A DNA stretch of 40,415 nt from a virus (Duplodnaviria > Caudoviricetes). The notes under the pieces are model-generated. The model was not told the DNA's origin and did not search any database. It saw only the letters and a list, made by a program, of their open reading frames with translations. The stretch lies in the IMG/VR virus record IMGVR_UViG_3300038520_001754, positions 1-40,415 of that record; one strand, 5' to 3'. The position numbers were made by a program, and so were the translations under genes. This document shows, in pieces, positions 1,351-39,538 of this stretch. Each line of letters starts with the position of its first letter. Positions within the stretch are counted from its first letter, which is position 1.

Positions 1351-1567
1351 TCTTAACCTCCTTGGCTTCTACCAGAATTGTTTCGCCCCTCTGGGCAAGG
1401 TCAACAACCTTATCGGCTGTGTAGGACTTTTTCCCTACATTGAAAACGTCGCCCGGACTCAAGCCAGTCGCGTACGGCATACTAAACGTTTGGGGGTCTT
1501 TGTTGTTAGCAGAGTGGGCCAGAAACTCTGACCCACCAAACTCAACTGTCACCTGATTCCAAGACAT
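1301..1567 (-). CDS. Hypothetical tail-region protein (88 aa)
   Basis: ORF with RBS directly after the major tail gene; overlaps the next gene by 50 nt; no motif recognised. Confidence 0.65.
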   Translation of the reverse strand: MSWNQVTVEFGGSEFLAHSANNKDPQTFSMPYATGLSPGDVFNVGKKSYTADKVVDLAQRGETILVEAKEVKNGGKSKARGSDDNSGD

Positions 1568-8100: not shown

Positions 8101-10728
8101 AGCGTCTTGATACAATACACCAGCTGAATATTTGAAGCCGTTCCTCGTTTGATTTTGTTCTCTCAAAAGATTGGTAGAGGACGTCGCGTTATACCGATAC
8201 ATATACAAATAGTTATATGACCCTCCAGCCGTTTGATAAGCGGCATACGGGTCTGCGGCATGACTAATCAAACCATACGGAACTGAAGCTCCACTCACAT
8301 TTAGGTTTTTGTACATATCAAAACCTAGATAATTCGCATGCTGTGTGCTGGACAAAGTCTGTATCAAAGTGTCATCTGGGACACTGCCAAATCCGGGTGT
8401 TGAACCGCCGACTGTTTGACCCGTCCTGTTTCTGGCTATGAACGTGTAATTTGTATAATTGATATTACTGTTTGAGGAATTGCCACTTGCCCTCATCCAC
8501 TTGGGGCGTTGGCCCACGGTGAAGTTTTCGTACTTACCACTATTATTTGATTGCCAAGATTCAATTGCCCCCTTAGCTATTTGGTGCATAAGAGGCAAGT
8601 GCTCACTAGCCGTTGTGAAAGCTATCGCGCCAGACGCGACGGTTGGCAATGAGCCGCCATTGGTAGCGGTTATAGATGTCGTGTTACCTGTCGTGAGTCC
8701 GTGATTTGCGTAATAAAATGAGTCTCTGTTTGGCTTGGTAGCGCTTATAGTCAACCCGGATACCGTTCCAGAAACTTCCCAAATATTTTTACCCAGCACT
8801 CTAAGGCGATTATTGTCTATGGGGTCAACTGCAACGCTGTTTCCAGACTCATTGGTGAGAGTTACGACATTTGACACCCATGACCCGCCACTACTGTCAT
8901 TCGTGTAAAAATGATTGTTTGTTGTCAAAGTCAAGGTATCGCCCATTGAGGCCCCATGATTTGACACCCAAATGCTATTGCCCTCCGGGTCTTCTATGAG
9001 GGGTATGACGTAGTTATTTTTAGCTGTGAAATTCACATCATAGTTGGCCCCATAATTGAAGCCATCTGAGTAGAACGTGTAAAATTCATAATCCGGGTTG
9101 TTAGCTTCATTGAAATTGCCGCTGAAATAACCTGTCTCAGATGACCACGCACCTCGATAGTTATTGCGAAATCTCTCTGGCGTTTGGAAAGGAAAATATC
9201 TATAGACGCTGTCGTTGTTAGCGGTTGCCGCTGTTATGGGGAAGTGAAAGTTGGTGTTGTAGTTCTCTCCCCAATAATACGCTATACCTGCGGTCGTGCC
9301 AAAACCACTTGCTGACCTCTCGCAGAACAAGAGGTGCTGAGGACGGGTATTCAGAGAAACGCCGTACGCCCCCACAGACGCGCTGAGGTCGCGTCCAGAG
9401 CCGGAACCACTATTATTGCTGGCATACGTCTTCCAAGTGATTCTGTAATTCGATGCTGGTTTGCTGACGTTGTATAATTCATACGCAATACACAGCAAGT
9501 GTTTTCCTGAGTTTGATGTTCCGTATCCTGTTAAGTTTACGACGTTGCCTGATGTGTCTTTGAGCTTTATGTTGCTGTTGTCTAATTTGTCCACATAGTA
9601 GATATCAAACCTATTCAGACCGGCTATCTCATCGTCGTGTACGGGGGCGACATAGGCCACGCAATCATCTGTCTCCAGCCCATGTCCTATCCATTGGATG
9701 GAGTTGTTTGAAAGGTTCACATTGCCAGCTCCCGGCTCAAATTTTAGAGCGTGTGAGCCTATGACACCTCTTGTCTCTGTGCGCCCTTGGACGAAATCGC
9801 TTAGTTTGTTTACAGCCGCAGTGTCTCTATATTCTACATAATAATCGCCGTCTGGAGCCGCACCTGTGGTGTTGGTCACAGACGCTGTGCGGGTTCCAAG
9901 AGTGTTCAATAGATATATTTCAGTTCCTTCTTCAAACCCGTGAACTTGGCTTGTATTGACGGTCAATTTACTTTGTGCCGCGCCGTCGCTCACAATCCCG
10001 TCCTCTTCATTGTACTCAAGTTGAGAGCCATTGAAGAATCTGCCAGCTATGATAGTCGTGTAAGACCCAAACAAGCTTTGCGTTACTGATTGCGTGGATT
10101 TCGCCTTGTAAACAAATGTCGAGTCAGTTGGTGTGGAGGTAATCAAGAAATTACCTTCAGCCGTTACAGACGCCAAACCTCGCACATCTATCGGGGTTCC
10201 CACGGTCAAACGATGTGGGGACGAGAACGTGACAGTGATTTGGTCACTGCCAGCCTGAGATGTGACAGCCGTTATCCCGGTCAATGAAGCATCGCCGGTC
10301 GTTGAGTGATATGACGGATAATTATTTACAAGCTCAAGAGTCTCCCATTTAGACGACTGCAGGCCATACTCAAAATCGGTGTCAATCAGGTTTTCCGGGT
10401 TCGATATACGTAGCTTGTTTACCGGGTCATAGAATGACGCTTTGAAATCTATCTCTTGCGCGTCGTAATCAACAAATATCTGTAGCTCTGTCTGGTCATT
10501 TATCCCGATAGCTGATACGTCGGTATCAAGTGTGAACGAGGTGTAATCAGTTGTAGAGCTATATGACCTAGCGCTGAAGCCTTTTCCAGTTTGCGAAAAG
10601 TTGTATATGATTTGATTGTTGGTGACATCTGTAATGAGCAATAACTGCTCGCCCTTGATGTTGCCGCGAATCTGAACAACATCCGTAGTGCTGTTCAATA
10701 TGTAGTCATGGATAAGTTTTTTGGCCAT
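5128..10728 (-). CDS. Large virion structural/fibre protein (1866 aa)
   Basis: Ser/Thr/Gly/Asn-rich with repeated HGL/HRL..G beta modules; N-terminus LLLITDVTNNQIIYNF; lies within the fibre block. Confidence 0.7.
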   Translation of the reverse strand: MAKKLIHDYILNSTTDVVQIRGNIKGEQLLLITDVTNNQIIYNFSQTGKGFSARSYSSTTDYTSFTLDTDVSAIGINDQTELQIFVDYDAQEIDFKASFYDPVNKLRISNPENLIDTDFEYGLQSSKWETLELVNNYPSYHSTTGDASLTGITAVTSQAGSDQITVTFSSPHRLTVGTPIDVRGLASVTAEGNFLITSTPTDSTFVYKAKSTQSVTQSLFGSYTTIIAGRFFNGSQLEYNEEDGIVSDGAAQSKLTVNTSQVHGFEEGTEIYLLNTLGTRTASVTNTTGAAPDGDYYVEYRDTAAVNKLSDFVQGRTETRGVIGSHALKFEPGAGNVNLSNNSIQWIGHGLETDDCVAYVAPVHDDEIAGLNRFDIYYVDKLDNSNIKLKDTSGNVVNLTGYGTSNSGKHLLCIAYELYNVSKPASNYRITWKTYASNNSGSGSGRDLSASVGAYGVSLNTRPQHLLFCERSASGFGTTAGIAYYWGENYNTNFHFPITAATANNDSVYRYFPFQTPERFRNNYRGAWSSETGYFSGNFNEANNPDYEFYTFYSDGFNYGANYDVNFTAKNNYVIPLIEDPEGNSIWVSNHGASMGDTLTLTTNNHFYTNDSSGGSWVSNVVTLTNESGNSVAVDPIDNNRLRVLGKNIWEVSGTVSGLTISATKPNRDSFYYANHGLTTGNTTSITATNGGSLPTVASGAIAFTTASEHLPLMHQIAKGAIESWQSNNSGKYENFTVGQRPKWMRASGNSSNSNINYTNYTFIARNRTGQTVGGSTPGFGSVPDDTLIQTLSSTQHANYLGFDMYKNLNVSGASVPYGLISHAADPYAAYQTAGGSYNYLYMYRYNATSSTNLLREQNQTRNGFKYSAGVLYQDADSNHSGGIAVTLAIWKDAWAVNTNQTPSSSVSVASYSSYGYLYQAMPTYSACWYNGVFQMQVPAGATFSATDAQNLVYGIVDAFAANFTYPTLSSGDTVGVTVINNNRFSIFDTSTQLPFDFQNSGTPDITFGSISATGTSYGELDGTYPIHDSPTVQSYRLQLPFASNPRSIVFPSSDVDATQNTIEATGHGLVTGMPFVYTASQKINGLNSGNTYYAIVVNEDLLRVASSSADALAGSAIDFLNTGTGNHTITINSVTGMTPQAGVITTEAGSAIITGDVDSLFKRYWKTGDTIIIKNTTTSPATLVESEVKIIPTDGKIELTSPLNFTSTTSKVFRKTELYVRPNGLFQHKPFDGGVAIQTGTSPNSSLVRQTRKYFRYQSGKGIQTSYAMNFNPPVQLENLTGNGTTATARTRYPHRLKVGNSIEVVNSEDANFNGTFTVATVPDEFRFTYTASSSLSAKPNGFPDVYINTYSDSYVRGGMFDEQNGFFYEYDGQYIYCVRRSSTQQLSGTFAVTNRSHRVEGTNTSCDRQLTAGDMIVIRGQSYKVTYVDGANKIDIAPAYRGVTGTGVIITKTIDTKVRQENWSIDPCDGNGESGFNLDLKKIQMAYMDYAWYGAGKIRFGWKGNDGKVIYTHEFIHNNKLKESYFRSGNLPARYEVGTTTAPEYYPALFHWGTSVIMDGTFDDDKAYLFTSNSNTLTFSNGLLVTATTTEASFLNFEYDYQTRVYNWFVNIPFATTDASKLITGTPMFTSGGELTGQVIHSTQYKKIAGTPRIIARIYILSSFYQPNQNLYPSVPQGTSVSLGASTAGTTDVDLGTALIPLISIRLAPSVDGGLSGALGQRDIINRMQLKLNTVGVVLTHDCEVSMILNSDLSTTAFENVQSPSLCQTIKHEIGQEIFGGSNLFQFRASGGTEDSAGQNTSNTSNFELGEIIDLGNSILGGDGVYPNGPDLLTIAVKVLNSSGVSATNQFQASARISWAESQA

Positions 10729-15160: not shown

Positions 15161-16384
15161 TTAAGCGCTAATGGTTTGAGTGCGAATAGCTTCTGGAAGC
15201 ACAACCTGACCACCAACACGGCGACGAGCAATATAACGAATATTGCCAGTAGTAGCCTGTGTGAATGGGTCACGTAGGACTGACAGATTTACCCGGTCAA
15301 CAATCAGATACCCTTGTTGGAAATTACCGAATATTACTGGCTTTGCGGATGCCGCAACGTCAGGCATATCTGGTGCCTCTACATAGGGATATCCCAGCAC
15401 GGTGTTTGGCACACCGGCTGTCAGCATCATTCCAGCTTGGAACACGTACTGACCTTGTCCGTCCTTCAGCTTACGAATTGCCGCAAGAGTAGAACGATTG
15501 AACATGAAAATTGCACCCTGACCATATTCGGTCTTGATGTCATGTACGAGGTCGAGTAGTCCATCACCGGTCAGTGCTGTGCCGCTACCTGAGTTAGTTG
15601 TTCCGACGTTTGAGTTAGTCAAAACACCTTCTGGCTTGCCGATGCTGTCACCGCTGATGAAGGATGTTCCTTCAGCTTTAGCGAACTGCGTAGCAAATTC
15701 AGATTGCATTTCGGCCTCAAGGTCAAAAACTGAATCCTCAAGTTCTTGCTCAGAAATGTCCACGAGAGCGTAAAGCTCATGTGTTGGAATCTCTTCCAAC
15801 TGAGTCGTGTACCCGGTTGTCTCTGCGCGTTGTCCTTGCTCCGCTACCCACTGCGCTGAAAACGTCGCGGTGCGTGACGGCATCTGGATAGCCTTTTGCG
15901 ATGTCGCACGGACACGTGCGGCGGCACGGAATGGCGTGATTTCAGTGATGGTCTTGATGAGTTCTTGAACGTACTCCGTTGGAGCCAAGAAACCAGCAGA
16001 CGTATCATCTGATACAGAGAGCGCTTTAATCTCTTCTGCATCTAGACCTTCCTTACCCTTCCTTAACCACGTGTCGAATGACTTGAGTGCCACATCAATG
16101 GACTTGCTGTCCATCTCTGTCCCAGCTTGGGGACGTTTCATGGATGTCTCAAGTTGCTCCATCTTTTCGCCCATGGACTTGGAATCGTTCTGCATGAGGG
16201 TCAACTTTTGATTGATGTCCTCAAGCTTGTCCAAATCCTCTTCGATGGCTTTGAGCTTGCCTTCTGTAAGTGGGTCTGCTGACCCCTTGGTTTCGATTTC
16301 GGCTAGACGAGCATCGTTGGTTGCTTTGAATTCCTCGAAAGCTGTTGCGATGCCATCTACTGCCTTTTTGATATCTTCAGACAT
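15161..16384 (-). CDS. Major capsid protein, HK97 fold with N-terminal delta domain
   Basis: Coiled-coil N-terminus, EEIKALSV putative cleavage site, AGFLAP.E, F..GD...KP.G, LGYP, FGNF..GY.IVDR, LRDPF, RRVGG. Confidence 0.97.
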   Translation of the reverse strand: MSEDIKKAVDGIATAFEEFKATNDARLAEIETKGSADPLTEGKLKAIEEDLDKLEDINQKLTLMQNDSKSMGEKMEQLETSMKRPQAGTEMDSKSIDVALKSFDTWLRKGKEGLDAEEIKALSVSDDTSAGFLAPTEYVQELIKTITEITPFRAAARVRATSQKAIQMPSRTATFSAQWVAEQGQRAETTGYTTQLEEIPTHELYALVDISEQELEDSVFDLEAEMQSEFATQFAKAEGTSFISGDSIGKPEGVLTNSNVGTTNSGSGTALTGDGLLDLVHDIKTEYGQGAIFMFNRSTLAAIRKLKDGQGQYVFQAGMMLTAGVPNTVLGYPYVEAPDMPDVAASAKPVIFGNFQQGYLIVDRVNLSVLRDPFTQATTGNIRYIARRRVGGQVVLPEAIRTQTISA

Positions 16385-22072: not shown

Positions 22073-22600
22073 CTAAGTGGCTATCCAATCCCATATCTCA
22101 GTACTGAGACTGACTGTATCACTAATCTCATTTAATCTAAATGGCTCAAAAATTCCAGCAAATTCTTCTTTTATGTTGTTTATCTTAGTTTTTCGGCCTT
22201 TTAGGAATTTATCTGATTGAGTATCACCCCTCGCTTCATGTCTCCGGGTTAGCTCCCCCTCCCCTTGCTCCAAGATAATGATACGCATTTGATACAAGGT
22301 AGACAGGTATCTCAGGTTGGACGCAGAGAATAACCTGTCACCCTCAAACAAAAGGTTGCGCTTGCCCTTGGAGGCATAATCCAGAAAATCTTTATTCACA
22401 GCCATTGATAGCCGGTCTGTTCCTTGAAACTTTCCTTGGCCATCGTACACGCCCAACACTGCTACATTAGACCTCGCCTCAAGATGACCATACAGTTTCC
22501 CGTACTTTAGCCTTTGGCTTGTCTGGTAATTCCGCATTATCTCCCGCATCAGGGTTGTCTTGCCTGTTGCTGGCTCCCCTCCAATGGCTAAACACTTCAT
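22073..22600 (-). CDS. P-loop nucleotide kinase of DNA base-hypermodification loci
   Basis: IGGEPATGKTT Walker A, GTDRLSMAV, FEGDRL; neighbour of the aGPT-Pplase2-like gene. Confidence 0.75.
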   Translation of the reverse strand: MKCLAIGGEPATGKTTLMREIMRNYQTSQRLKYGKLYGHLEARSNVAVLGVYDGQGKFQGTDRLSMAVNKDFLDYASKGKRNLLFEGDRLFSASNLRYLSTLYQMRIIILEQGEGELTRRHEARGDTQSDKFLKGRKTKINNIKEEFAGIFEPFRLNEISDTVSLSTEIWDWIAT

Positions 22601-22926
22601 GGCATAAATATTCCTTTTTTACGCCCGTACCCGTGATAGTTGATAACGCTGTGGCCCCGCCCCTCTAAACACGTCGCCAACATAAAATTGGTTTTCTGCC
22701 ACATGCTGGCTTCAGCCATGAGGTATTCGCACTCCATCTTGTCTTCAATAATGTTGCCGGGATTGGCTGAGGCTTTGGGGTCAACAACCGGGGAATGGCT
22801 ACAGGCACTGACCGCTCCCATTACTATTACAGCAATGGTCAGACCAATGACCGCTTTCCAAAAATGTCTGTCCATGACCGGTAAGTTGTATTGTATAGAT
22901 ACTGGCAGTTTATGTTCATGCATCAT
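22597..22926 (-). CDS. Putative lipoprotein
   Basis: Hydrophobic stretch ending in lipobox-like VSA-C, then P.VD...D..EC...CL.GRG pattern. Confidence 0.6.
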   Translation of the reverse strand: MMHEHKLPVSIQYNLPVMDRHFWKAVIGLTIAVIVMGAVSACSHSPVVDPKASANPGNIIEDKMECEYLMAEASMWQKTNFMLATCLEGRGHSVINYHGYGRKKGIFMP

Positions 22927-23971
22927 AAATTCTCCACTGAGATTTGACTACGTCTAGTTCATGCCACATCTGTGGCTTATTGTTGAAAAACGCTTCTACG
23001 CGAGGTATGCGTCCATACTCCATTAGCGCCTTGTTCCAGCTTGCTACGTAAGCTGATTCTGCGGTTTGGTTTTCCGGGTTCTTCTCAGCCAACAGGCTGT
23101 GAGGAATGACAGCTGACCGCCCCTCAAAATACTTATCCCACAGCCAGCGATATTCTGGCCATAGCTCCATCATGTAATCCATTTCCCAGCTTTGCTCGTC
23201 GATGTAGCAACCGCCATATCGTGAGCCTTTGTGCTGTCTCTTATAATTACAACATGCCGTCTCCAAAGAAAGAAAGCCCGCATCCGGGTGGTCCAACGTT
23301 TGGATGTACTCCAGCGCACTCTGCTCTAAGTCGGCTATGTCTTTCTTAGAGCATTTGCCTTCAACCAAATGGTCTTTGCCCACACAAAATGCCCAGCCTG
23401 ACCGGTGTGACTTGCCGTCGGCAAATTCCATGGTTGGAGGTCGTAAAGGTGCGCTAATAAACTTGGTGAGCGCCTCCGTGAAACACCAATGGCCCATCCT
23501 CCCCCAGTGATGCCAATCTCTCATGCACCTGTGCTTTAGACTTTCATAATTCTCAAACGGGTCGCCCCTGAGACTGAATGAGATGTACTGACCAAGGGTA
23601 TCGAATTTCCTCAGAGATGCTCCGATTGACCTCAGGAATTTCTCAAATACAAGTTTTCTGTATTTGCAATCTGGGCTAAACAGCAATCGCTTTTTGTTAT
23701 CGTAAAAAAACTCTACTGCTTCGTCGATGACGTCCAGAGTAAAAACTGGAAACTGGTCTGAGAACATTGTCTCACATGGCCCAGCATAAGTGGCCCCGTG
23801 GAAAAGACCCATGACGCACCGTTTCTCAAAATCAAAATCAAGGTCATCTGCTATCCAAGTCTCCACGTTGATATCTGGACTCCAATCTCCAGTTGCCAAC
23901 ATGAACTTGTAGAACCGGTCAAACCCCTCGAAACGATTTTCAGGTAATCTGTAGTCAATATCATCCCGCAT
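22916..23971 (-). CDS. aGPT-Pplase2-like amino acid:DNA transferase (HhH-glycosylase fold)
   Basis: DYRLPENR.E.F start, D.KY.K, WGRMGHWCFTE, LETACCNYK, RYGGCYID motifs, recalled as features of the clade-2 alpha-glutamyl/putrescinyl-thymine pyrophosphorylase family. Confidence 0.75.
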   Translation of the reverse strand: MRDDIDYRLPENRFEGFDRFYKFMLATGDWSPDINVETWIADDLDFDFEKRCVMGLFHGATYAGPCETMFSDQFPVFTLDVIDEAVEFFYDNKKRLLFSPDCKYRKLVFEKFLRSIGASLRKFDTLGQYISFSLRGDPFENYESLKHRCMRDWHHWGRMGHWCFTEALTKFISAPLRPPTMEFADGKSHRSGWAFCVGKDHLVEGKCSKKDIADLEQSALEYIQTLDHPDAGFLSLETACCNYKRQHKGSRYGGCYIDEQSWEMDYMMELWPEYRWLWDKYFEGRSAVIPHSLLAEKNPENQTAESAYVASWNKALMEYGRIPRVEAFFNNKPQMWHELDVVKSQWRIYDA

Positions 23972-24644
23972 TGAAGCGCTCTATCCCGGCTTGGTAAATC
24001 TCGTCTCGTATCTCATAAACCAGATAACCTCTGCCTAAACGATATGCGGCCAACCCGGTTGTTCCAAGACCGCCAAATGGGTCATAGACCACATGACCTT
24101 CATCCGTGAAATTCTCGACACAATACTGAGCAATCTCTATCGGCTGGGCCACAACCTCGCCATCTATAACTTTTTCTTTGTCGAATGGCCCCCACACGTC
24201 GTGACCGTAAGTTTGAAAAAGCTTTTTCTTGCGTAGATTGAAAACCCCCTTTTGGTCTTTTTTCTGGAACGTGTACACGTGTCCAACCGTATGGGAGTAA
24301 CCGTCATACCCAGTTTTCTTCAGATAAAATTTCACATCTTTGAGTAGATATCCGTACTGAAAAAACGCCTGATTGACGTAATAGAATTTAGGCAGAATTT
24401 GAGAGTTGGCTCTGCGGCATCCTGTGAACGCGATAGTCACCGTTCCCAGCTTTGGTCTAATCCGTGGCACAAACCAATCTAAAAATTTCGTTTTGTAGGT
24501 GATGGGCTTGTTCTTATCTACACCGAATGAGGCGAGGTCTTCATAACACGGCGTCCCACTGAAAAAGTAGTCGTACTCGTCTGTTTCTAAATTATCTAGG
24601 CAACTGCCCAAGATGTAATCTTGCCTGACGTCTGTCATGCTCAA
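23961..24644 (-). CDS. SAM-dependent DNA methyltransferase, beta-class order, atypical catalytic motif
   Basis: C-terminal motif I VVYDPFGGLGTTG...GR.Y...E; N-terminal motif IV reads SGTPCY rather than (D/S)PPY. ATG at 24638 is the likely start. Confidence 0.75.
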   Translation of the reverse strand: MSMTDVRQDYILGSCLDNLETDEYDYFFSGTPCYEDLASFGVDKNKPITYKTKFLDWFVPRIRPKLGTVTIAFTGCRRANSQILPKFYYVNQAFFQYGYLLKDVKFYLKKTGYDGYSHTVGHVYTFQKKDQKGVFNLRKKKLFQTYGHDVWGPFDKEKVIDGEVVAQPIEIAQYCVENFTDEGHVVYDPFGGLGTTGLAAYRLGRGYLVYEIRDEIYQAGIERFNAG

Positions 24645-25606
24645 ACCTCTGCTGAATTCAATCCCTTTAAGCTCGTCCTGTTTTTGATGATTTCCAGTTC
24701 ATCAAGAGATGATTGACAGCGCATCATGTTGTTTCTGTAGTAGCAAACGACGCTGATACGCTCAAATGGCTTCTTTGCTCTAAACTCTGTATTGCCATGC
24801 CACTCATGCACATTGAAAAAGCAAACATCTGTGGTACGGACGTCAAACCCTACCCCGTAACGTGGCAGACAAGTATAACCGCCTTCAAACTCTCCCGCCT
24901 GTAGTACGGCGATGTTTCCCAGCCCACCTTCATAATCTCCAGCGTCACAATGTATTGCCGTTCTAAAGTTGCGGTTGACTGTGACCGTAGTGAACACCGT
25001 ATCTTTTATTTTGAAATCTGAATGAGTGTCGTCATAGACCTCACGCTGAGCGTTCCATCTATCCGGGCAAGCTTTTTTGAACTCGTCAGAGATGTTTCTG
25101 ATATACGGGATTGCTGACTTGAACTTGGATAGATTTTCCTCCGTCCATGCTGTCATCCGGCAGTAGGGCATCCTTTGACTGCGGTCGAAATATCCTATGA
25201 TGCCGCTCTCCACGGCTTTGGATAAAGCTGTTTTGGATACTGTCCCGTCTTGCTTGACGTAATGAAACTGTTTGGCGTTTGTGTTCTCGCCCTCTGCTAC
25301 TCCGTTGGGGAAGTAATATTTATCTTTGGCCGCATTGAACACCCCGGCGGCATCTCCCCGATTTTTCGTGACTCGTGCGGCAGTGCGCAGAGATTGATAA
25401 GCTGATTTGCAAAGCTTGGGGTCTAAGACGTTTTTGCGAAAAAAGAAAAGTGGATTGCCTTCGCTGTCGTAGGCATCGCAGTCATAGTCTATGATGGTGT
25501 GAATTTCTTGGTCTTCTACAAATGTGCCGGCCCGGCTAGCAAACTCTTCAAAACTGCATTTGGCCTCAGTGTTAAATCTTTTTATTTGTTGCGGCATTTT
25601 CGACAA
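24641..25606 (-). CDS. TET/JBP-family 2OG-Fe(II) dioxygenase (5-methylpyrimidine oxidase)
   Basis: NRG.AAG, SGIIGYFDR...PYCR.TA, FTTVTVNRNFRTAIHCDAGD (HxD), VHEWHGNT (distal His), RISVVCYYR (2OG-binding Arg). ATG at 25597 possible. Confidence 0.9.
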   Translation of the reverse strand: MSKMPQQIKRFNTEAKCSFEEFASRAGTFVEDQEIHTIIDYDCDAYDSEGNPLFFFRKNVLDPKLCKSAYQSLRTAARVTKNRGDAAGVFNAAKDKYYFPNGVAEGENTNAKQFHYVKQDGTVSKTALSKAVESGIIGYFDRSQRMPYCRMTAWTEENLSKFKSAIPYIRNISDEFKKACPDRWNAQREVYDDTHSDFKIKDTVFTTVTVNRNFRTAIHCDAGDYEGGLGNIAVLQAGEFEGGYTCLPRYGVGFDVRTTDVCFFNVHEWHGNTEFRAKKPFERISVVCYYRNNMMRCQSSLDELEIIKNRTSLKGLNSAEV

Positions 25607-26186
25607 GCTTGTACACGGTATCCGTCAGATTCTCTGTGCCAAGCTCCCCCTGTAATTTATCTATCATTTCCCTAAATTTTGGTTCGTTCTCTGTGTTGAG
25701 ATACAAGAAAACAATTTTAACATTTGTCATCTCATATTCGTCTGATATCTCTTCTTGGATATCGTCATCGACGTCTATGGCAAACTCTAAATCAGTACCG
25801 CCCAATCGCGCTATCTCATCTAATGAGAACCCGGTCAGGGTCATATCAAAATCAAAGTTAGCTATATCAGCCAACTCAGCCTTCAACATTTCTCTGTCCC
25901 AAGTTGCCAGTTCGGCTGACTTGTTATCCATAATTCTGAAACTGCGTTTTTGCTCTTCTGATAGCCCGTCTGCTTTGTGAACAGGCACAGCGTTTAACCC
26001 TAGATTTAGTGCCGCCTGATGCCGGGTGTGACCGGCTAATATGACATTGTTCTCATCGACGACGATTGGTTGCCGAAAACCGTACTCAGATATTGAGCGC
26101 TCTAGTACCTCTACAGCCTCATCATTATTTCTAGGGTTGCGCTCATAAGGCAGTAAATTTTTAGGGTCGAGTAATGTTACCTTCAT
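25572..26186 (-). CDS. ParB/Srx N-terminal domain protein
   Basis: LLPYERNPR.N, SI.EYGF.QPIVVD....ILAGHTR..AA..LG...VPV, RIMDNK..E...WD. Confidence 0.88.
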   Translation of the reverse strand: MKVTLLDPKNLLPYERNPRNNDEAVEVLERSISEYGFRQPIVVDENNVILAGHTRHQAALNLGLNAVPVHKADGLSEEQKRSFRIMDNKSAELATWDREMLKAELADIANFDFDMTLTGFSLDEIARLGGTDLEFAIDVDDDIQEEISDEYEMTNVKIVFLYLNTENEPKFREMIDKLQGELGTENLTDTVYKLVENAATNKKI

Positions 26187-26215
26187 GATATTCCTCTGAA
26201 TATTTCCCTTAATTC

Positions 26216-26243
26216 AATATAACAAATCCGGTTGACTTGTCCA
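26216..26243 (-). promoter_or_regulatory. Candidate leftward promoter for the modification/packaging operon
   Basis: TGGACA (26243-26238), 16 bp, TATATT (26221-26216) with extended -10 TG. Confidence 0.45.
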
Positions 26244-26260
26244 GATGAAAGTCGGATACT
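26232..26260 (+). promoter_or_regulatory. Sigma70-type promoter for sRNA-1
   Basis: TTGACT (26232-26237), 17 bp, GATACT (26255-26260); predicted start about 26266. Confidence 0.6.
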
Positions 26261-26265
26261 AGAAC

Positions 26266-26335
26266 CTCATCCTACCATTAGGTTGTGGGGATGGGTTAGA
26301 ATTTTCATGCTCTCTGGCCCATCCCCTATTTATTT
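26266..26335 (+). ncRNA. Candidate trans-acting antisense small RNA (sRNA-1); may extend to 26390
   Basis: Own promoter; 14 bp stem 26287-26300/26313-26326 with two G-U pairs valid only on +; 12 nt loop ATTTTCATGCTC complementary to repeated start-region motif GAGCATGAAAAT; T-rich tail. Confidence 0.62.
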
Positions 26336-26361
26336 CCAGACACCACCTAGAACGCTCTCTG

Positions 26362-26390
26362 AAGCCCGTAGACAGGTCTTACGGGTTTTT
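26362..26390 (+). terminator. Possible intrinsic terminator
   Basis: AAGCCCGTA...TACGGGTTTTT stem plus T run. The left arm is also part of the spaced inverted element. Confidence 0.45.
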
Positions 26391-26437
26391 CCATATATTG
26401 TGTCAACTCTTTTCCAATCGGCGTTTTCTTGGCAGGG
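26362..26437. repeat. Three-block spaced element, copy A (inverted relative to 34952-35027)
   Basis: AAGCCCGTAGA-N18-CCATATATTGTGTCAA-N12-CGGCGTTTTCTTGGCAGGG. Confidence 0.85.
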
Positions 26438-26460
26438 CCAAGGATTGAAAGCTTTTTGCT

Positions 26461-26590
26461 AAAAAAAACGAAAAAACGAAAAAAAAACGAAAAAAAAGCT
26501 TGTTTTATTAATTGGCTTGGTTTTATACTGAGATTGTCGGGTTCGAGAGCGAACCTAAAACTGAAAATCTAAAAGGATGAATGAGCATGA
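26461..26590 (+). promoter_or_regulatory. Early promoter cassette 1 (A-tract UP element, -35/-10, hairpin, RBS)
   Basis: A-tracts separated by CG at 26461-26497, TTGTTT 26500-26505, TATACT 26524-26529, hairpin GGTTCG-AGAG-CGAACC 26540-26555, AAGGATGAATGAGCATGA. Confidence 0.75.
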
Positions 26591-26859
26591 TTAATTACGT
26601 TACCGGGAATACATACAGTGGCCAGAACATTGATGCGCTTGCAGAGGCTGGTTTTAGTTCGGAATATTGGGCAACTTACAATCAGTGGATGGAAGCTGGC
26701 TTCCAAGTTCAAAAAGGTCAGTCTGGAACTACTTTGATGCGAGTCGTCGAGGTGAAGCGTAAGGACAAGGTCACTGGTGAAGAAAAGAAAATCAAAGTGC
26801 CTAAATACTTCAACGTCTTCAATCAAGAGCAAGTAGCAAAAATTGAGGTGGCGGCGTAA
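26581..26859 (+). CDS. ArdC-like N-terminal ssDNA-binding domain protein (stand-alone)
   Basis: N..TG..YSG.N...L, WATYNQW...G.QV.KG..G, F.VFN.EQ motifs; metalloprotease half absent. Start may be 26587. Confidence 0.78.
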   Translation: MSMINYVTGNTYSGQNIDALAEAGFSSEYWATYNQWMEAGFQVQKGQSGTTLMRVVEVKRKDKVTGEEKKIKVPKYFNVFNQEQVAKIEVAA

Positions 26860-26883
26860 GCCGTCCCTCCCTTTCTGGAGAGC

Positions 26884-27213
26884 ATGAAAATGAGTGATTA
26901 CAATCCTTACGCCAAAATGACTGATAAAACTATCAAAGTCTGGTTCGCTAAAAAAATTAACGCATGGGTTATTCAATGTGAGGCTGAGTTTGCCATTGTC
27001 GGAAAATTTGCTTGGTGTCAGAAAGAAGCACGGCAAATGCTGTGGGCAATGAATCGTAATACTGACCGCACTCGTCGCGTTGGTCGGATTAAATATTACA
27101 CCAAAGTCGGTGAGAGACTGCACACTGAAGAGTATATCAGTTTAGACCGTGACGGCTGGTCTACAGTTAAAGCTTGCAGGGTCACTCGTGGCCCTAGCCG
27201 TCGAATCCAATAA
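26884..27213 (+). CDS. Hypothetical protein
   Basis: GGAG RBS; likely start 26890; no motif recognised. Confidence 0.6.
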   Translation: MKMSDYNPYAKMTDKTIKVWFAKKINAWVIQCEAEFAIVGKFAWCQKEARQMLWAMNRNTDRTRRVGRIKYYTKVGERLHTEEYISLDRDGWSTVKACRVTRGPSRRIQ

Positions 27214-27265
27214 ACCAACCGGGCGTCACATGACGCCCATTTTTAAAATGCAAAGGAGCATGAAA

Positions 27266-28357
27266 ATGAAACAAGGTATGAAATTTGAAAACCTCTATGA
27301 CCGCATCATCGCCACAGCGAATTGCGCTGATGACTTTGTGGTCTCTGGAAACACTCTGCAAATGAGCAGTGACGGCAAGCATCTGTTGCACTGCATCCCA
27401 GACGTCGCCCCGGAGCTACACATTGATGATGTTGCTCATGACCAGTTCAGCTATCGTCTGGGCATCCCCCGCGCCTATTACAAGAAAATGCGTAGTGAGA
27501 AGCCAGCACTGCTATCTGACAACGTCAATGCTTGGCTAGAGGATTCCGAAAAGCACATGCTGAGGACTCTCGATAATAGCAGTTTGGCTCTTGGGTCAAA
27601 CCCCATCACTTCAGTTCGCGCACTACTGTCTCAGAAATATCGCCGGATTGATAACCACGACGTCCTCTCAGCACTGATGCCAAAAATTGGTGAGAAAGAT
27701 TTTGAGGTTCAGTCATGCGACGTCACGCCATACAATATGTTCGTCAAAATCACATTCCCGTATGCACGGGCTGATGTGACTGTTGGTGACACCGTTGAGG
27801 CTGGTGTAATCATTCGCAACTCTGAGGTCGGCTGGGGTTCTTGCTCAGTTGAGCTTTTCATCCATCGCCTCGTCTGCACAAACGGCATGGTGATACCAGA
27901 GAAGGTCTGGTCTGCGCGCAAATATCATTCTGGAGCCAAAGTCCAGTTTGACGAAAGCACAGCACGTATCGTCTCTGAGCAAACTCAACAGCTAGCTGAT
28001 GCGGCATTCCTCTCGTCGTTCCATGATGTGATTGAGGCCGCACGTAACGAAAAGACCATCCAGTTGATTGCTGACGATTACCGCAAAGCTTCTGACGACA
28101 AGATAGCGCCGGGCATGAACATTGAGGAATCAGTCGAGCGCCTTTCCAAAAAGCTACTGATAACTCAAGACGAGCAAACTGCGGTGTTGGAGCACTTCGT
28201 CCGTGACGGTGATTTCTCTCGCTGGGGTTTTGCAAATGCTGTGACCCGCTCCGCTCAAGATGCCACATCATACGAGAGGGCAACTGAGCTAGAGCGCGTT
28301 GGTGGTCACGTCATCGCAATGCCAACTGCTGATTTCCAGAGAGCCATTGCGGCTTAA
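27266..28357 (+). CDS. DUF932-family protein
   Basis: RALLSQKYRRIDN, GVIIRNSEVG.GS, RLVCTNGM, NAVTR.AQ; start chosen after AGGAG (the track starts at 27149). Confidence 0.8.
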   Translation: MKQGMKFENLYDRIIATANCADDFVVSGNTLQMSSDGKHLLHCIPDVAPELHIDDVAHDQFSYRLGIPRAYYKKMRSEKPALLSDNVNAWLEDSEKHMLRTLDNSSLALGSNPITSVRALLSQKYRRIDNHDVLSALMPKIGEKDFEVQSCDVTPYNMFVKITFPYARADVTVGDTVEAGVIIRNSEVGWGSCSVELFIHRLVCTNGMVIPEKVWSARKYHSGAKVQFDESTARIVSEQTQQLADAAFLSSFHDVIEAARNEKTIQLIADDYRKASDDKIAPGMNIEESVERLSKKLLITQDEQTAVLEHFVRDGDFSRWGFANAVTRSAQDATSYERATELERVGGHVIAMPTADFQRAIAA

Positions 28358-30109: not shown

Positions 30110-30760
30110 TCATCCTGCTAGGTTATTTAGTCTTTGTTCCTTTTGTTTTTCTGGGACAACCTCCCAACGACGTTGATTCAACCATGTCGTCGCATGAGGT
30201 ATATATTTCACCTCTGTGCCTTTTACCGATTGAGCATATCGAGCCGTTAGTAAGAAAAGGTCATGCTCATCAATATGTAAATCAGTAGCCTTGTGCCACA
30301 AATCATAAGCCTTTTTCTTTGACCCCGATTTGTTAGGATAAAGGTTCCACCAATTATTAAATTGAGCCGGATATCGAAACGCAGATAATGGTTTATTGTT
30401 ATTGGTTATTGGGTCGTCGTTTTGACCCTCCCGTCCCCCACTCATTTTGGTGACCCCCCTCTTCATATTGGTGACCCCTAGCTTCAACTGATATGAATTC
30501 GATGTTTGACGATTAGAGCCGTCTACACCGGTTTCAAATCTCTGGGTGATGGATATGAGGCCGTTGTCACTCAAACGCCTCAGCGCCCGTTCTACGGTGC
30601 TTAAACCACATTCAGCTTTTGTCGCTAGGGTTTTGTGTGAGGGGAAAGATACGCCATGCTCGTCGGCGTAGTTAGCTAGAAGTATTAGTATTAATTTATC
30701 TGTTGACCCACCAGCGGTTTGCTGGGAAGCCCATGCAATAGCATCCCATGACATGCTCAT
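30110..30760 (-). CDS. Replication initiator-like protein (N-terminal wHTH)
   Basis: KLILILLANYADE.G.SFPS..TLA...TV.RAL..L...GLI; C-terminal F..WW.LYP.K...K.A...W and YIPHATTWLNQRRWE; AGGAGG RBS. Confidence 0.82.
   Translation of the reverse strand: MSMSWDAIAWASQQTAGGSTDKLILILLANYADEHGVSFPSHKTLATKAECGLSTVERALRRLSDNGLISITQRFETGVDGSNRQTSNSYQLKLGVTNMKRGVTKMSGGREGQNDDPITNNNKPLSAFRYPAQFNNWWNLYPNKSGSKKKAYDLWHKATDLHIDEHDLFLLTARYAQSVKGTEVKYIPHATTWLNQRRWEVVPEKQKEQRLNNLAG
30417..30478. repeat. Iteron-like direct repeats inside the initiator gene (candidate origin)
   Basis: TCATTTTGGTGACCCC (30442-30457) and TCATATTGGTGACCCC (30463-30478), 21 bp period, degenerate third copy near 30417, adjacent AT-rich stretch. 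Confidence 0.6.
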
Positions 30761-30843
30761 CCTCCTTATTAGTTGTGGGGATGATTATGGGAAATTTTTT
30801 TGCAGTCGAAAAGGAAAAATTTTTTTTGAACTCTGACACTTAC

Positions 30844-31083: not shown

Positions 31084-31382
31084 GCCGTCGTGCCCATGTA
31101 GGCACCGACGATTCCCGCCCCGCTTATGTAGAATAAATTGCTGATATCAGAGAGCACTTGCACCCGTTCCACCGGGACAAAAAACATTGCGGCAGTGAAC
31201 GCGCCCATCCCAACCAAAGATGCGGTTGCCATCCGTCGTTGCGCTCGTTGCTTCCGCATATCGTGCTCAGCTTGTCTTATTTCTTTGGCGTGTGCCAACT
31301 CTTCGTCTGTGATGACTCCGTCCCCGTCTAGGTCGTACTCTTCATACTCTGATTGTTGCTGAAAACTCTTAGCCTTAGCCAT
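31065..31382 (-). CDS. EF-hand-containing two-TM membrane protein (holin-like candidate)
   Basis: DLDGDGVITDEE canonical EF-hand loop; two hydrophobic segments at the C-terminus. Confidence 0.65.
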   Translation of the reverse strand: MAKAKSFQQQSEYEEYDLDGDGVITDEELAHAKEIRQAEHDMRKQRAQRRMATASLVGMGAFTAAMFFVPVERVQVLSDISNLFYISGAGIVGAYMGTTAWMSRK

Positions 31383-32275: not shown

Positions 32276-32324
32276 TGTTAATCGTCCATACTGACTAAGT
32301 AACTAAAATCCCATGAGGTATAGC

Positions 32325-33095
32325 ATGAAAAATAATCACTTCACTAAACATGGCATTGACCATTTATCTGCGTCAACTGTCAATCTCTGGATATCAACTC
32401 CCGCGATGTGTCTAATGAAACTGGCTGGCTTCTCAAGTCACGCTGGCCCAGCCGCATGGCGTGGAATTGGTGTCGATAGGGCTGTCACAGCACTTATCGA
32501 AAATCCAACAATGAGTCTGGACTCCGCGCAATCAATAGCAAATATGGAGTTCTCACAATCTCAGGTTAAATCCGACGTCAGAACGACTGAGGATAAAATC
32601 ACCAAAGAGCGCAAGCACATGAAGTCTTGTCTCGACACCGCCCATAAACAAATTATCCCGTCATATCGGGAACGTAATCTGGTGGAGAGCCAAAAGAAAA
32701 TCGAGCTAATGCTTGATGAAATTCCTGTGCCTTTTATCGGCTACATTGACTTGCTGTTTGAGGATGAACTCGTCGATTTGAAAAGCAAGTCATACAACCT
32801 CTCCAAGCCAACTCTGAATGACTGTCGTCAGATGAGCATATATGCAAAAGCAACTGGGGCTGAACCTTGGTTGGCATATATCACTCATAAAGAGGTCAGG
32901 CAGTTCAAAGTGGAGAATCTCTCAGCATACCTGTCAGACGTTATCAGAGCCGCACAATCTCTGGAAAAGATATTGAGCGTCAGCGATGACATTGAGGAAT
33001 GCTGTCAATTTGTCTACCCAGATTTAGACCATTGGATGTGGGGCGACGAGGTAGCAGTAAAAGAAGCAAAGCGCATTTGGAGGATACAATCATGA
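32325..33095 (+). CDS. PD-(D/E)xK exonuclease (Cas4/RecB-like recombination nuclease)
   Basis: HLSASTVN, GYIDL...VDLKS, Q.SIY; start after GAGG at 32325 (the track starts at 32313). Confidence 0.82.
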   Translation: MKNNHFTKHGIDHLSASTVNLWISTPAMCLMKLAGFSSHAGPAAWRGIGVDRAVTALIENPTMSLDSAQSIANMEFSQSQVKSDVRTTEDKITKERKHMKSCLDTAHKQIIPSYRERNLVESQKKIELMLDEIPVPFIGYIDLLFEDELVDLKSKSYNLSKPTLNDCRQMSIYAKATGAEPWLAYITHKEVRQFKVENLSAYLSDVIRAAQSLEKILSVSDDIEECCQFVYPDLDHWMWGDEVAVKEAKRIWRIQS

Positions 33096-33841: not shown

Positions 33842-34188
33842 TAAACCAACTCTGGAGCCGCACTGAGCGGCTCTACTCTTCCATCCAAGCTTTCCTCCAC
33901 GGTGGTCTCAGAAAACCGCGTAGTGAGCCTCTAGCAAAGCCGAATTTTGATGCTAGACCCAAAATTATCCCATTTCCGTGGGAAAATGATGGAAGGACAC
34001 CAAAAGGTGCAAATATGAAAATAGCCAGAGAGATATCTGAAAATGAGGTCTATCTCTTCAGAAATGAAAATAAAGCTATCGTCTTATGTCGCGCCATCAG
34101 ACAAGTGCATGGACTCGATAGAGCATCCATACGTCAAACCGGTAACGGCCTATATAGAGTGGGCATCAAAGGAGCATCGAATGAGTAA
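33838..34188 (+). CDS. Hypothetical protein
   Basis: GGAGG RBS and ATGA coupling; no motif recognised. Confidence 0.6.
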   Translation: MINQLWSRTERLYSSIQAFLHGGLRKPRSEPLAKPNFDARPKIIPFPWENDGRTPKGANMKIAREISENEVYLFRNENKAIVLCRAIRQVHGLDRASIRQTGNGLYRVGIKGASNE

Positions 34189-34633
34189 TCAATACGACAA
34201 TACAAACAACGGGGCATTATTCCCGGCAAAAAATCTAACCTTGCACTCTCAAGGGCCAATAAACGTGAATGGCAGTGATGGCAAATTCGTTGTCATCCAA
34301 AGTCAGGATAGCAAGGGCAATGTCCACATGGACTTGTATCAGCAAGTTGGTTCGTTGAAACCGTATCCAGAGGAAAAGAAAGGTGAAAAATCACCTGACC
34401 TCATAGGCGACGTCTTGGCCTTGCCCAAAGCTGGTGAGAGAGACAGTGCATTTGATATGACGGTATTCGGCAGAGACAAAGTATCGAAAAATGGTCAGCC
34501 ATTTATTTCGGTCAACTTGGTCGAGAAAAAGTCTAATGCGCCTGTAGCAAACAATCAGGCGATGCAAAACGAATCTCCATTGCCGGATGCACCCGCACCG
34601 CTATCGTCAGCATTCGGCTCCAAGACGTTTTGA
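34181..34633 (+). CDS. Putative ssDNA-binding protein
   Basis: MSNQYDNTNNGALF start, K.PD..G motif, disordered tail ending in F; follows nuclease and SSAP; AGGAG RBS before 34181. Confidence 0.6.
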   Translation: MSNQYDNTNNGALFPAKNLTLHSQGPINVNGSDGKFVVIQSQDSKGNVHMDLYQQVGSLKPYPEEKKGEKSPDLIGDVLALPKAGERDSAFDMTVFGRDKVSKNGQPFISVNLVEKKSNAPVANNQAMQNESPLPDAPAPLSSAFGSKTF

Positions 34634-34658
34634 CAATCCTAAAATAATATGACATCTT
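34630..34658 (+). promoter_or_regulatory. Sigma70-type promoter for sRNA-2
   Basis: TTGACA (34630-34635), 17 bp, CATCTT (34653-34658) with extended -10 TG. Confidence 0.55.
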
Positions 34659-34663
34659 CAAGG

Positions 34664-34722
34664 GGCAGTAATTTTCATATTGACTCCCTTATAACTGAAC
34701 CCCTCACGGGGTTCTTTTTTTT
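34664..34722 (+). ncRNA. Candidate anti-Shine-Dalgarno small RNA (sRNA-2)
   Basis: About 58 nt between a promoter and a terminator; contains ATTTTCAT (anti-AUG) and ACTCCCTT (anti-SD). Confidence 0.5.
34697..34722 (+). terminator. Intrinsic terminator
   Basis: GAACCCC-TCAC-GGGGTTC followed by T8. Confidence 0.88.
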
Positions 34723-34920: not shown

Positions 34921-34951
34921 GCAGTTTTCAATAATCAGGCTACAGCCCTGA

Positions 34952-35027
34952 CCCTGCCACGAAAACGGCGCTAACAATTTCTTTGACACAATATATGGCT
35001 TTGCCACTTACGTCGCTCTACGGGCTT
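34952..35027. repeat. Three-block spaced element, copy B (reverse complement of copy A)
   Basis: CCCTGCCACGAAAACGGCG-N12-TTGACACAATATATGG-N18-TCTACGGGCTT. Confidence 0.85.
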
Positions 35028-35060
35028 TCTAGGGGCCTTAGTGACGATTTGACATTTTTC

Positions 35061-35155
35061 AGAAAAAAAAAGAAAAATCGAAAAAAAAACGAAAAAAAGG
35101 TTTGTTTTTTGCAAAAAATCTCTTATACTAAATACACTGAATAGGGAGCATGAAA
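35061..35155 (+). promoter_or_regulatory. Early promoter cassette 2
   Basis: A-tracts 35061-35098, TTGTTT 35102-35107, TATACT 35124-35129, GGGAGCATGAAATG. Confidence 0.72.
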
Positions 35156-35379: not shown

Positions 35380-35431
35380 GTTACATTTCGTAACATACTG
35401 TAACAATCACTGTCTAATGGAGGATGAACCT

Positions 35432-35890
35432 ATGACAGATTTTCAATACAACGATGGCGGTCGTCAATCCGCTGGGTACAAAGGTCACACTGGTGATTGC
35501 GTGGTTCGCGCTATCGCCATTGCGGCTGACCTTCCTTATCAACAAGTTTACGATGAGCTATTCCGGCGCAATCGTGAGTTTGCTGAAACCTCACGCAGTC
35601 GTGCGGCAAAGCGTGTAGCCCGGAAGGGTGCCACACCTCGCAATGGTAACTTCTACCAATCTTACCATCCATACCTTCTGGAGTTGGGATTCAAATGGGT
35701 TCCAACCATGTTCGTTGGTCAGGGATGTACTCATCACGTCAACGCTGATGAGTTGCCTTCCGGCAGATTGGTGTTGCGATTGAGTCGCCACCTCAGCGCT
35801 TTCATCGACGGCGTCGTGAACGACACCTATGACTGCTCGCGTGATGGCACCCGTTGTGTCTACGGTTACTACATCTTGGAGTCAGCGTAA
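35432..35890 (+). CDS. Papain-like fold protein (Cys-His-Asp), peptidase C39-like
   Basis: GDCVVRAIAIA...Y..VY..L, RH.SA..DG...DT.D; GGAGG RBS before 35432. Confidence 0.62.
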   Translation: MTDFQYNDGGRQSAGYKGHTGDCVVRAIAIAADLPYQQVYDELFRRNREFAETSRSRAAKRVARKGATPRNGNFYQSYHPYLLELGFKWVPTMFVGQGCTHHVNADELPSGRLVLRLSRHLSAFIDGVVNDTYDCSRDGTRCVYGYYILESA

Positions 35891-36093: not shown

Positions 36094-36375
36094 ATGGGAA
36101 AGCACAGACAGATTGACCATGAGGAGTTCAAGCTAATCGTTGAGGGCAGAACCCAAAGAGCAATCAACAATATCTTGATGATTGAGCGGATGGCTAAACC
36201 AAAACGATTTGAATACACGGTGGAGGATATTCTGACCGTGAAGGCCGCAGTGGTAGAAGCACTAGACCGCATGGAGGCGACGTTTGTAGCGTCCAAGCAA
36301 AAAAGAGTGTTTAAATTAAACACGATTCGTTCAGAGTCAGAAATGGAGAAAGAGCATGAACATATTCTACCTTGA
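36094..36375 (+). CDS. Hypothetical helical protein
   Basis: GAGG RBS; F...VE.R..RAI..I pattern; function unknown. Confidence 0.6.
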   Translation: MGKHRQIDHEEFKLIVEGRTQRAINNILMIERMAKPKRFEYTVEDILTVKAAVVEALDRMEATFVASKQKRVFKLNTIRSESEMEKEHEHILP

Positions 36376-37063: not shown

Positions 37064-37274
37064 ATATGCCAAGCCAATCAGTCGAGGTGCGAACGCCGGG
37101 GGCATCGGTTGCAGAGTCGTACAGCGAGACGTAAGGGTGGTTGTGAACCGTGAACCTAGGATAACACGGGAATCAGGTAGACCGAATGGCGACTTATAAC
37201 GTGGAGTCAAGATATCTTGGAGCCACAATAAAATCTTGCTCATTGACCCGTGACCTCTATCACGGGTTTTTTTT
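37064..37274 (+). ncRNA. Candidate structured non-coding RNA (about 210 nt), family not recognised
   Basis: Bracketed by a TATAAT promoter and a terminator; no credible ORF; several helices found by eye, including a possible pseudoknot. Confidence 0.55.
37245..37274 (+). terminator. Intrinsic terminator
   Basis: GACCCGTGA-CCTCTA-TCACGGGTT followed by T run. Confidence 0.88.
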
Positions 37275-37276
37275 CG

Positions 37277-37400
37277 AGAAAAAAAGGAAAAAAAACGAAA
37301 AAAAAGCTTTTCTTTATCTTTTAGATGTCCCATACTAAACTCATAGGTTCGAGAGAGAACCCGAATTTAGCAACTGACCTAAGGATGAATGAGCATGAAA
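37277..37400 (+). promoter_or_regulatory. Early promoter cassette 3
   Basis: A-tracts 37277-37305, TTTTCT-17-CATACT (37331-37336), hairpin GGTTC-GAGAGA-GAACC 37346-37361, AAGGATGAATGAGCATGA identical to cassette 1. Confidence 0.72.
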
Positions 37401-38412: not shown

Positions 38413-38425
38413 AAGGATGAACCTA

Positions 38426-38665
38426 ATGGCTAAAGAAAATAAAACTTTGAGAGTGCTAAATCACCTCAAGCAAAATCGCACCATCACATCTTGGGAAGCG
38501 ATAACTCAATATCGGGCTACCCGGTTGTCTGCTATCATTTTAAATCTGAAGCAACAGGGTCACAACATAATTACAGAAATGGAAAAGGGGCAGGACGGTG
38601 TGCGTTACGCTCGATACCATTTCATCACTGGAGAGCCGAATGCCGATAGCAATGCCCCCCAATAA
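38426..38665 (+). CDS. Winged-helix DNA-binding protein
   Basis: RVLNHL....TITSWEA...Y..TRLSA.I..L...GH.I; ATG at 38426 after AGGA. Confidence 0.78.
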   Translation: MAKENKTLRVLNHLKQNRTITSWEAITQYRATRLSAIILNLKQQGHNIITEMEKGQDGVRYARYHFITGEPNADSNAPQ

Positions 38666-39215: not shown

Positions 39216-39538
39216 GCAAACGATACGAGAACAAGGGGCATCTGAGCTATGTCCATGAATTCCCGTGTTGCCTCCAACCTAAAGGTGAATGCAGTGGTGA
39301 GATACAAGCTCACCATCTGCTGAAGCCTTGGGATGGATTCCGGGGGATGGGACTAAAGGCAACTGATAGAAATTTAATACCGCTCTGCTTCAAACATCAT
39401 CACGAGCTACACCATGTCGGGAATGAGCTTAAATTTTTTGACATGAAATTCGGTGATGAAAATTGGGGCCAACAGGTAGCTAGAGTTTTATGGGTGACGA
39501 GTCCCCATAACAAAGATGGAGTAAAGGATGATTTCTGA
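39212..39538 (+). CDS. HNH-like nuclease (DUF968-like)
   Basis: HL.YV...PCC, QAHHL, GMGLKA.D...IPLC..HH.ELH; ATGA coupling. Confidence 0.75.
   Translation: MSKRYENKGHLSYVHEFPCCLQPKGECSGEIQAHHLLKPWDGFRGMGLKATDRNLIPLCFKHHHELHHVGNELKFFDMKFGDENWGQQVARVLWVTSPHNKDGVKDDF

Follow-up and report, generated by a model that had tools for sequence, protein, structure and literature searches.

Known phage RNAs mostly control a single gene or host genes. The c4 RNA of phages P1 and P7 is encoded in the immI operon together with icd and ant, is processed from a precursor to 77 bases, acts on one operon (icd-ant) and is needed for lysogeny; P1/P7 heteroimmunity also runs through c4. The RNAs sar, OOP, aQ, 24B_1, PreS, VpdS, DicF and STnc6030 exert base-pairing control of phage development, acting on one phage gene, in cis or on host mRNAs, and none is described in the cited sections with a tag common to a gene class (PMC12197685). 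In Streptococcus pneumoniae, the csRNAs, which are five chromosomal, CiaR-controlled siblings of 87-151 nt with host targets, block 30S loading on comC (PMC4507080). Cluster K mycobacteriophages carry SAS, an oriented, non-palindromic sequence located a few bases before many non-structural gene starts and overlapping the ribosome-binding site; the cited accounts name no partner, leave open whether it is RNA or protein, and give the role as unknown in 2024 (PMC3203893, PMC11373665). In a literature search with limited coverage of subscription journals, no phage RNA was found to be described with a shared start tag that covaries with it.

The window analyzed here, 40,415 bases long, is an entire virus record with an estimated completeness of 81% and is present in marine metagenomes. 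Its plus strand contains a predicted small RNA gene of about 70 nt at positions 26266-26335, supported by its fold and by a matching layout in 11 relatives; across the clade, the RNA is predicted from sequence to be 50-70 bases long. This RNA would probably use two seeds to pair in trans with about a dozen early and replication mRNAs and block ribosome loading, most likely as a delayed early shut-off. In its mode of action, the predicted RNA resembles csRNAs and multi-target seed sRNAs; unlike the csRNAs, it is a single phage RNA of 50-70 nt, faces a standardized tag that changes along with it and belongs to genes of the phage itself, and has no Rfam csRNA match. It shares with c4 its approximate size and its predicted action in trans on phage genes, c4 being a repressor of phage protein synthesis (PMC8546580). 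In contrast to c4, it is a predicted primary transcript, has a seed at its 5′ end and would act on about a dozen scattered targets; its neighbors are ParB and ArdC-N/DUF932 instead of an immI operon, the 55 ORFs scanned include no antirepressor, and it has no C4 Rfam match. The predicted RNA is a member of neither the csRNAs nor c4; none of 4227 Rfam models (including C4 and csRNA) reached its gathering score in the window, and positions 26150-26460 gave no Rfam match at E up to 5. The tags resemble SAS in placement, SAS being a different 13-bp sequence from a different host group (PMC3203893, PMC11373665). In contrast to SAS, the tag here has a candidate RNA partner that varies together with it; the shared start words differ from the SAS consensus, and the phage was encountered in marine samples. 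New here are four putative seed-tag states in one clade and one genome with two seeds.

The minus-strand left arm of the genome encodes ParB, a Tet/JBP oxygenase, a methyltransferase, an amino acid:DNA transferase, a kinase, terminase, portal, capsid and tail genes. The right arm, which by gene content would be the early/replication region, encodes ArdC-N, DUF932, a primase-helicase, an initiator, an exonuclease, Sak and small genes. The base-modification cluster (22073-26186, minus strand) forms one operon with ParB and comprises the Tet/JBP oxygenase, an N6/N4 methyltransferase, the amino acid:DNA transferase and a P-loop kinase, with 52-81% conservation in close relatives. In regions 1-2000 and 5128-10728, no tape-measure gene was recognized after the tail genes, and the capsid genes are separated from the connector genes by several tail-fibre genes and a gene for an 1866-aa virion protein. 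Phased A-tract promoter modules are repeated before early units (26453-26529, 35055-35120, 37261-37336, and 30783-30830) and occur in relatives too. The TTGACA word in a 53-nt inverted repeat (26391-26443 and 34946-34998) is oriented outward from each early module, and relatives keep a similar word.

Both the promoter and the hairpin proposed in the initial annotation were recovered. The predicted sigma-70 promoter, TTGACT-17-GATACT, is located at 26232-26260, in a scan where promoter-like sites were no commoner than in shuffles (24 versus 25.8). Back to back with it, at 26216-26243 on the minus strand, is the predicted divergent promoter of the ParB/base-modification/virion operon (10/12, extended TG, consistent with gene order). 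A GC-rich stem of 14 pairs, including two G-U pairs, spans 26287-26326, occupies the place of the relatives' terminator hairpin and encloses a 12-nt loop at 26301-26312. The 26266-26335 segment folds at -28.9 kcal/mol (z -4.14; equaled by 0 of 200 shuffles), and the minus strand folds worse, at -23.6 kcal/mol. Loop bases have an unpaired probability of 0.91-1.0 and an opening cost of almost nil; the 5′ seed is partly folded (mean unpaired 0.43), with an opening cost of about 2.6-3.6 kcal/mol. The T-run 3′ of the stem is weak and unlisted by the terminator scan; a second hairpin followed by a T-run at 26362-26388, predicted in a 130-nt fold, may provide an alternative 3′ end, giving an RNA of about 125 nt. 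Among the variants listed, none falls inside the RNA. In one metatranscriptome, no discrete transcript was seen; its contigs were unstranded with a depth of about 3, and one spans the promoter, the RNA and downstream DNA. Run X11 yielded four genuine pieces, all within 25198-26417 of 20 kb, and was left out as expression support because it had been found using that region and was unstranded and shallow.

The 5′ seed (type B; 26266-26273) is the complement of AGGATGA(G) and occupies the seed position that is conserved and covarying among relatives. AGGATGA(G) is found at seven starts (26574, 35421, 37382, 38414, and 39525 on the plus strand, 30763 and 30116 on the minus strand), of which the automatic start rule retrieved six, missing 35421. 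Its total in the window is not over-represented (11 copies versus 6.4 expected), and the word overlaps Shine-Dalgarno-like sequence. By sequence match, the plus-strand B-tagged sites are the ArdC-N gene start (26574-26590, with an 8-nt match to the loop at 26583-26590), a site upstream of the start at 35432 with an extended match to the 5′ domain (35414-35427), the start of a 159-aa ORF (37382-37400, with a 10-nt loop match at 37391-37400), a winged-HTH gene start (38414-38429), and a 107-aa ORF start (39525-39531). At the winged-HTH gene, the tag is joined by an exact 10-nt complement of the 5′ domain (26275-26284 against 38420-38429). On the minus strand, the tag marks the primase-helicase start (30110-30116) and the leader and ribosome-binding region of the replication initiator (30756-30783), where it is followed by a 7-nt match to the loop at 30752-30758. 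The initiator is the strongest predicted target: a repeat search matched the first 28 bases of the RNA (the 5′ domain, 26266-26293) to 30756-30783, as a 79% antisense match to the initiator leader. The resulting duplex is predicted at -39 kcal/mol, not counting the opening costs, which reach up to 22.6 kcal/mol, and complete pairing would open the stem (22.6 versus -39). The most shared 7-mers among 26 right-arm starts are AGGATGA and GAGCATG/AGCATGA, the complements of both seeds. A 7-nt match to either seed was present at 15 of the 26 right-arm starts, compared with 4/29 in the left arm; the other 11 right-arm starts had none. The window RNA is thereby predicted to have two seeds for two tag classes, TCATCCT being kept and a loop seed added.

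The comparative set consisted of 11 loci with full-length ParB (60-68% identity) and upstream DNA present, among them the near copies L121/L123, L180/L260, and L005/L006. The upstream regions of 22, 5, and 15 loci were inspected, and 2, 5, and 4 of these, respectively, carried the element; loci without it have ParB proteins of at most 57% identity and a different gene order. A metagenome scan covering 18 of 64 parts added three members among 80 kept loci. All 11 relatives have the RNA unit in the same place. The distance from TTGAC to the 5′ seed is 35 nt in 10 of the 12 rows and 50 nt in two C-type rows. The seed is followed by a stem of 11-17 bp, which differs in sequence between relatives, and then by a T-run. 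In 12/12 rows, the plus strand folds better, with 2-5 G-U pairs, and a seven-row alignment retained the stem with one-sided and two two-sided changes. An eight-row RNAalifold run including the window misaligned the stems, and its consensus was discarded as meaningless. The sRNA-class features of an own promoter, a single-stranded seed and an intrinsic terminator are present as a predicted layout in all 12 rows.

Three states of the 5′ seed and its tag were distinguished: A, with an TCATTCTC seed and an GAGAATGA tag (seven rows); B, with TCATCCT and AGGATGA (the window, L005, and L006); and C, with TTCATTTTATTCTC and GAGAATAAAATGA (two rows). The records of L005 and L178 are without early genes and are informative on the seed only. 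In five records with the TCATTCTC seed, GAGAATGA copies at starts numbered 9/10, 7/8, 4/5, 4/5, and 3/4 (0.1-0.8 expected), each total including the RNA's own site once. GAGAATAAAATG was at starts in 2/3 and 1/2 copies in the two C-seed records, respectively, and AGGATGA in 3/5 copies in G004; AGGATGA was also found at two starts in each of two A-type records. Orthologous DUF932 starts carry an A, B, C, or D tag (D being the tag read by the loop of the window), matching their own RNA. A motif-blind test took the 8-mer shared by most starts in each record; the genome's own RNA complemented it in six of nine records: the window (6/54 starts, by the loop), G001 (9/40), G005 (7/23), L122 (4/10), G003 (3/8), and L179 (3/5). 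G002 gave a five-way tie (3/21 starts), and no word was shared in G004 and L180, both short records. Starts with an 8-nt match to A-type RNAs numbered 7-11 in G001/G005, 0-2 of 54 in the window, and zero in G004/G002; C-type RNAs match 5-6 of the 54 window starts, which counts against specificity. The base of the ParB tree is open and four branches carry a seed state, suggesting about three independent changes. The 5′ seed thus combines complementarity to several unlinked initiation regions with covariation. The four GAGNATGA words stayed at background level, without enrichment, in 20 hand-picked ParB relatives without the unit (0.13-0.45 per 10 kb over 396 kb).

A DUF932 single-protein scan of viral contigs found no relative; the alignment query was successful. 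A promoter-seed pattern scan gave 29 stretches, of which two were the known B-type relatives and the others, except L113, were without the layout; L113 was rejected as a clade member since its long hairpin lies in unrelated surroundings. Further pattern scans gave 193 matches (99 distinct, 15 past a loose hairpin filter), in which only three known relatives were convincing, so that no new member was gained. Another conserved box, with ACCTA preceding the tags and TAGGT within the RNA, was not adopted, since it agrees with the window and L121/L123 but fails in L120, L178, and L179.

The initial annotation had proposed one sRNA for a dispersed set of tagged early genes. The complementarity holds and has strong comparative support, with the covarying element being the 5′ end (26266-26273) and not the loop; the target set includes early genes, as proposed, and replication genes as well. 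Layout, complementarity, the right-arm restriction of the tags and 5′-seed covariation across relatives are direct observations. Tag and RNA change in step from one relative to the next, which makes it likely that a single RNA blocks translation of the tagged set. Plus-strand transcription would start at 26266-26267, yielding a stable primary transcript that would pair over the Shine-Dalgarno-to-AUG region of tagged mRNAs and block their 30S loading. Repression is favored over activation by analogy with other RNAs covering this region. The RNA would accumulate later than the early transcripts, resulting in delayed shut-off of early and replication genes; this timing is suggested by its weak-looking promoter, back to back with the modification/virion promoter, and by the A-tract promoters of the early units. 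If so, a single RNA switching a class of phage genes via a common start tag that evolves with it would be the RNA counterpart, at the level of translation, of a repressor-operator regulon.

The main rival, rather unlikely on present evidence, leaves the RNA and its pairing unchanged and assigns them to immunity or superinfection exclusion. A resident phage would silence its own initiator, helicase and early genes and those of kin with the same tag, and tags would diverge to escape. Such a role fits the rapid joint change of seed and tag in close relatives, the position of the replication initiator as strongest predicted target, and the precedent of P1 c4 as a trans-acting immunity RNA (PMC8546580). 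The gene content points the other way: no integrase was detected among 55 ORFs scanned with PHROGs or 43 scanned with Pfam, a result that does not establish its absence from the genome because the record is 81% complete. Only a 63-aa XRE protein was noted. No relative, prophage included, was found in GTDB genomes. In the host search, cultured phages gave only matches below 50%, with mixed hosts. Delayed shut-off by the same RNA is preferred.

Pairing itself would be dispensable if the tags were DNA repeats of duplicated promoter-leader cassettes or sites for a phage protein, with the inverted copy beside ParB a by-product or an operator at the transcription start. Such a protein would be of the T4 RegA kind. 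Promoter-leader modules do recur in the window, and the 28-nt initiator match resembles an inverted duplication. This explanation is nonetheless improbable, as every relative has the inverted copy at a fixed TTGAC distance with a terminator-like hairpin behind it, and tags also occur at operon-internal starts with unrelated flanks. Moreover, a single base sets the inverted copy apart from the tags in a way that permits wobble pairing: G stands before 23 of 27 non-self A tags, and the facing position is U in 7/7 A-type RNA rows, which argues for wobble and not for a DNA copy. A-type records have a few GAGGATGA starts, readable by their seed via wobble, and B-seed records have no credible GAGAATGA start, the numbers being small.

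The loop seed (type D; 26301-26312, plus strand), the complement of GAGCATGAAAAT, is known from the window genome only. All nine loop matches listed at gene starts in the initial annotation were found at the coordinates and with the lengths given there. Beyond those at B-tagged genes, they comprise 14 nt at the start of a 109-aa ORF without assigned function (26878-26891), 12 nt at the DUF932 start (27256-27267), and 10 nt at a Cas4-like/exonuclease gene start (32322-32331), at 35146-35155, where the ATG is out of frame with an ORF starting at 35155, and at a pyrimidine-dimer glycosylase-like gene start (36351-36360), all on the plus strand. The ninth is the methyltransferase start (24635-24642, minus strand), the sole left-arm 8-nt match; methyltransferase starts in relatives are untagged, and this one may be a chance match. 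The 14-nt match and one 10-nt match use one or two stem bases. A small GC hairpin (26846-26870), which overlaps the first early gene's stop codon and lies immediately ahead of the next gene's tagged start, recurs in L115, L122, L123, and L179.

The recurrence at gene starts exceeds chance: GAGCATGA has nine copies in the window versus 1.4 expected (order-3 Markov), seven of the eight non-self copies being at ORF starts, and it ranks first among the 8-mers shared by the 54 called starts. At least 8 loop-complementary bases occur at 8/26 right-arm versus 1/29 left-arm starts (Fisher P 0.008), on a hand-curated start list compiled after the motif was seen, in which three coordinates were off by 1-8 bases, still inside the scored windows. 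The loop shared first place among 77,472 12-nt windows with the antisense of a site that lies within the initiator gene. Away from starts, it matches 10 nt at 15503-15512, 9 nt at 31148, 38837, and 39456, and 8 nt on the minus strand inside the initiator gene (30261-30268). The ATG of the tag is the true start in some genes and one of two in-frame ATGs, a spacer, or out of frame elsewhere, suggesting that the tag is an address over the ribosome-binding region and not a mere start-codon preference. The loop would be an acquisition specific to this lineage, directed at the GAGCATGA tag class. The expectation that loop and start motifs covary in related phages failed: relatives' loops are 3-8 nt (with a long insert in L179), and none is antisense to its own tags. 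The loop is complementary to several starts and has no relative to covary with, 0 of 11 relatives having a counterpart and a viral pattern scan giving no match to a second two-seed copy. In L179 (about 1460-1510, minus strand), the terminator loop is enlarged to a sub-hairpin in which 7 nt are complementary to one tagged start; this hints that loops can acquire additional seeds.

A functional 5′ seed with an incidental loop match, or an RNA that activates or stabilizes its targets, is marginally less probable again than the DNA-level explanation. The uniqueness of the loop seed to the window genome is in its favor, as is the commonness of A/U matches at AUG regions; the A/U part of the loop is generic, with 8-nt matches to 5/40 G001 starts too. 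However, GAGCATGA is the top start 8-mer exactly where the loop complement appears, with 7/9 copies at starts in the window and 0 in the ten relative records counted.

A broader interpretation of the two-seed RNA, offered tentatively, is a re-programmable RNA address system in which one RNA reads a standard start tag on early and replication genes, seeds are gained by inverted leader copying, and the outcome is both a developmental switch and kin exclusion groups. The 28-nt initiator match and the 14-nt loop match would be traces of inverted copying, and the window genome would have been caught mid-change, its 5′ seed being the old one and its loop seed the new. Orphan start-associated motifs such as mycobacteriophage SAS would also be explained, and a complement behind a promoter and before a terminator offers a search pattern for such unexplained motifs in other phages.

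The initial annotation had itself named a minus-strand 13-aa mini-ORF, and a leader peptide of this kind controlling the ParB operon is very improbable: the frame is present at 26308-26267, but the equivalent seed-opened frames in 10 relatives run 2-39 codons with no peptide in common, ParB has its own predicted promoter downstream of the frame, and G-U pairs favor the plus strand in 12/12 rows.

Other candidate RNAs were noted in passing. A second one lies at the end of the exonuclease-Sak operon (34630-34722, plus strand), with a TTGACA site, a clear terminator (z -3.86), and a hairpin whose loop is complementary to the start at about 34012-34022; at the same place, the unit in G001/G005 is a different one, with two hairpins and a linker that is C-rich and anti-Shine-Dalgarno-like. 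In the unrelated phage L113, a near-consensus promoter, an CTCATCCT 5′ end, and a long hairpin at 9935-10005 (minus strand) possibly represent another small RNA.
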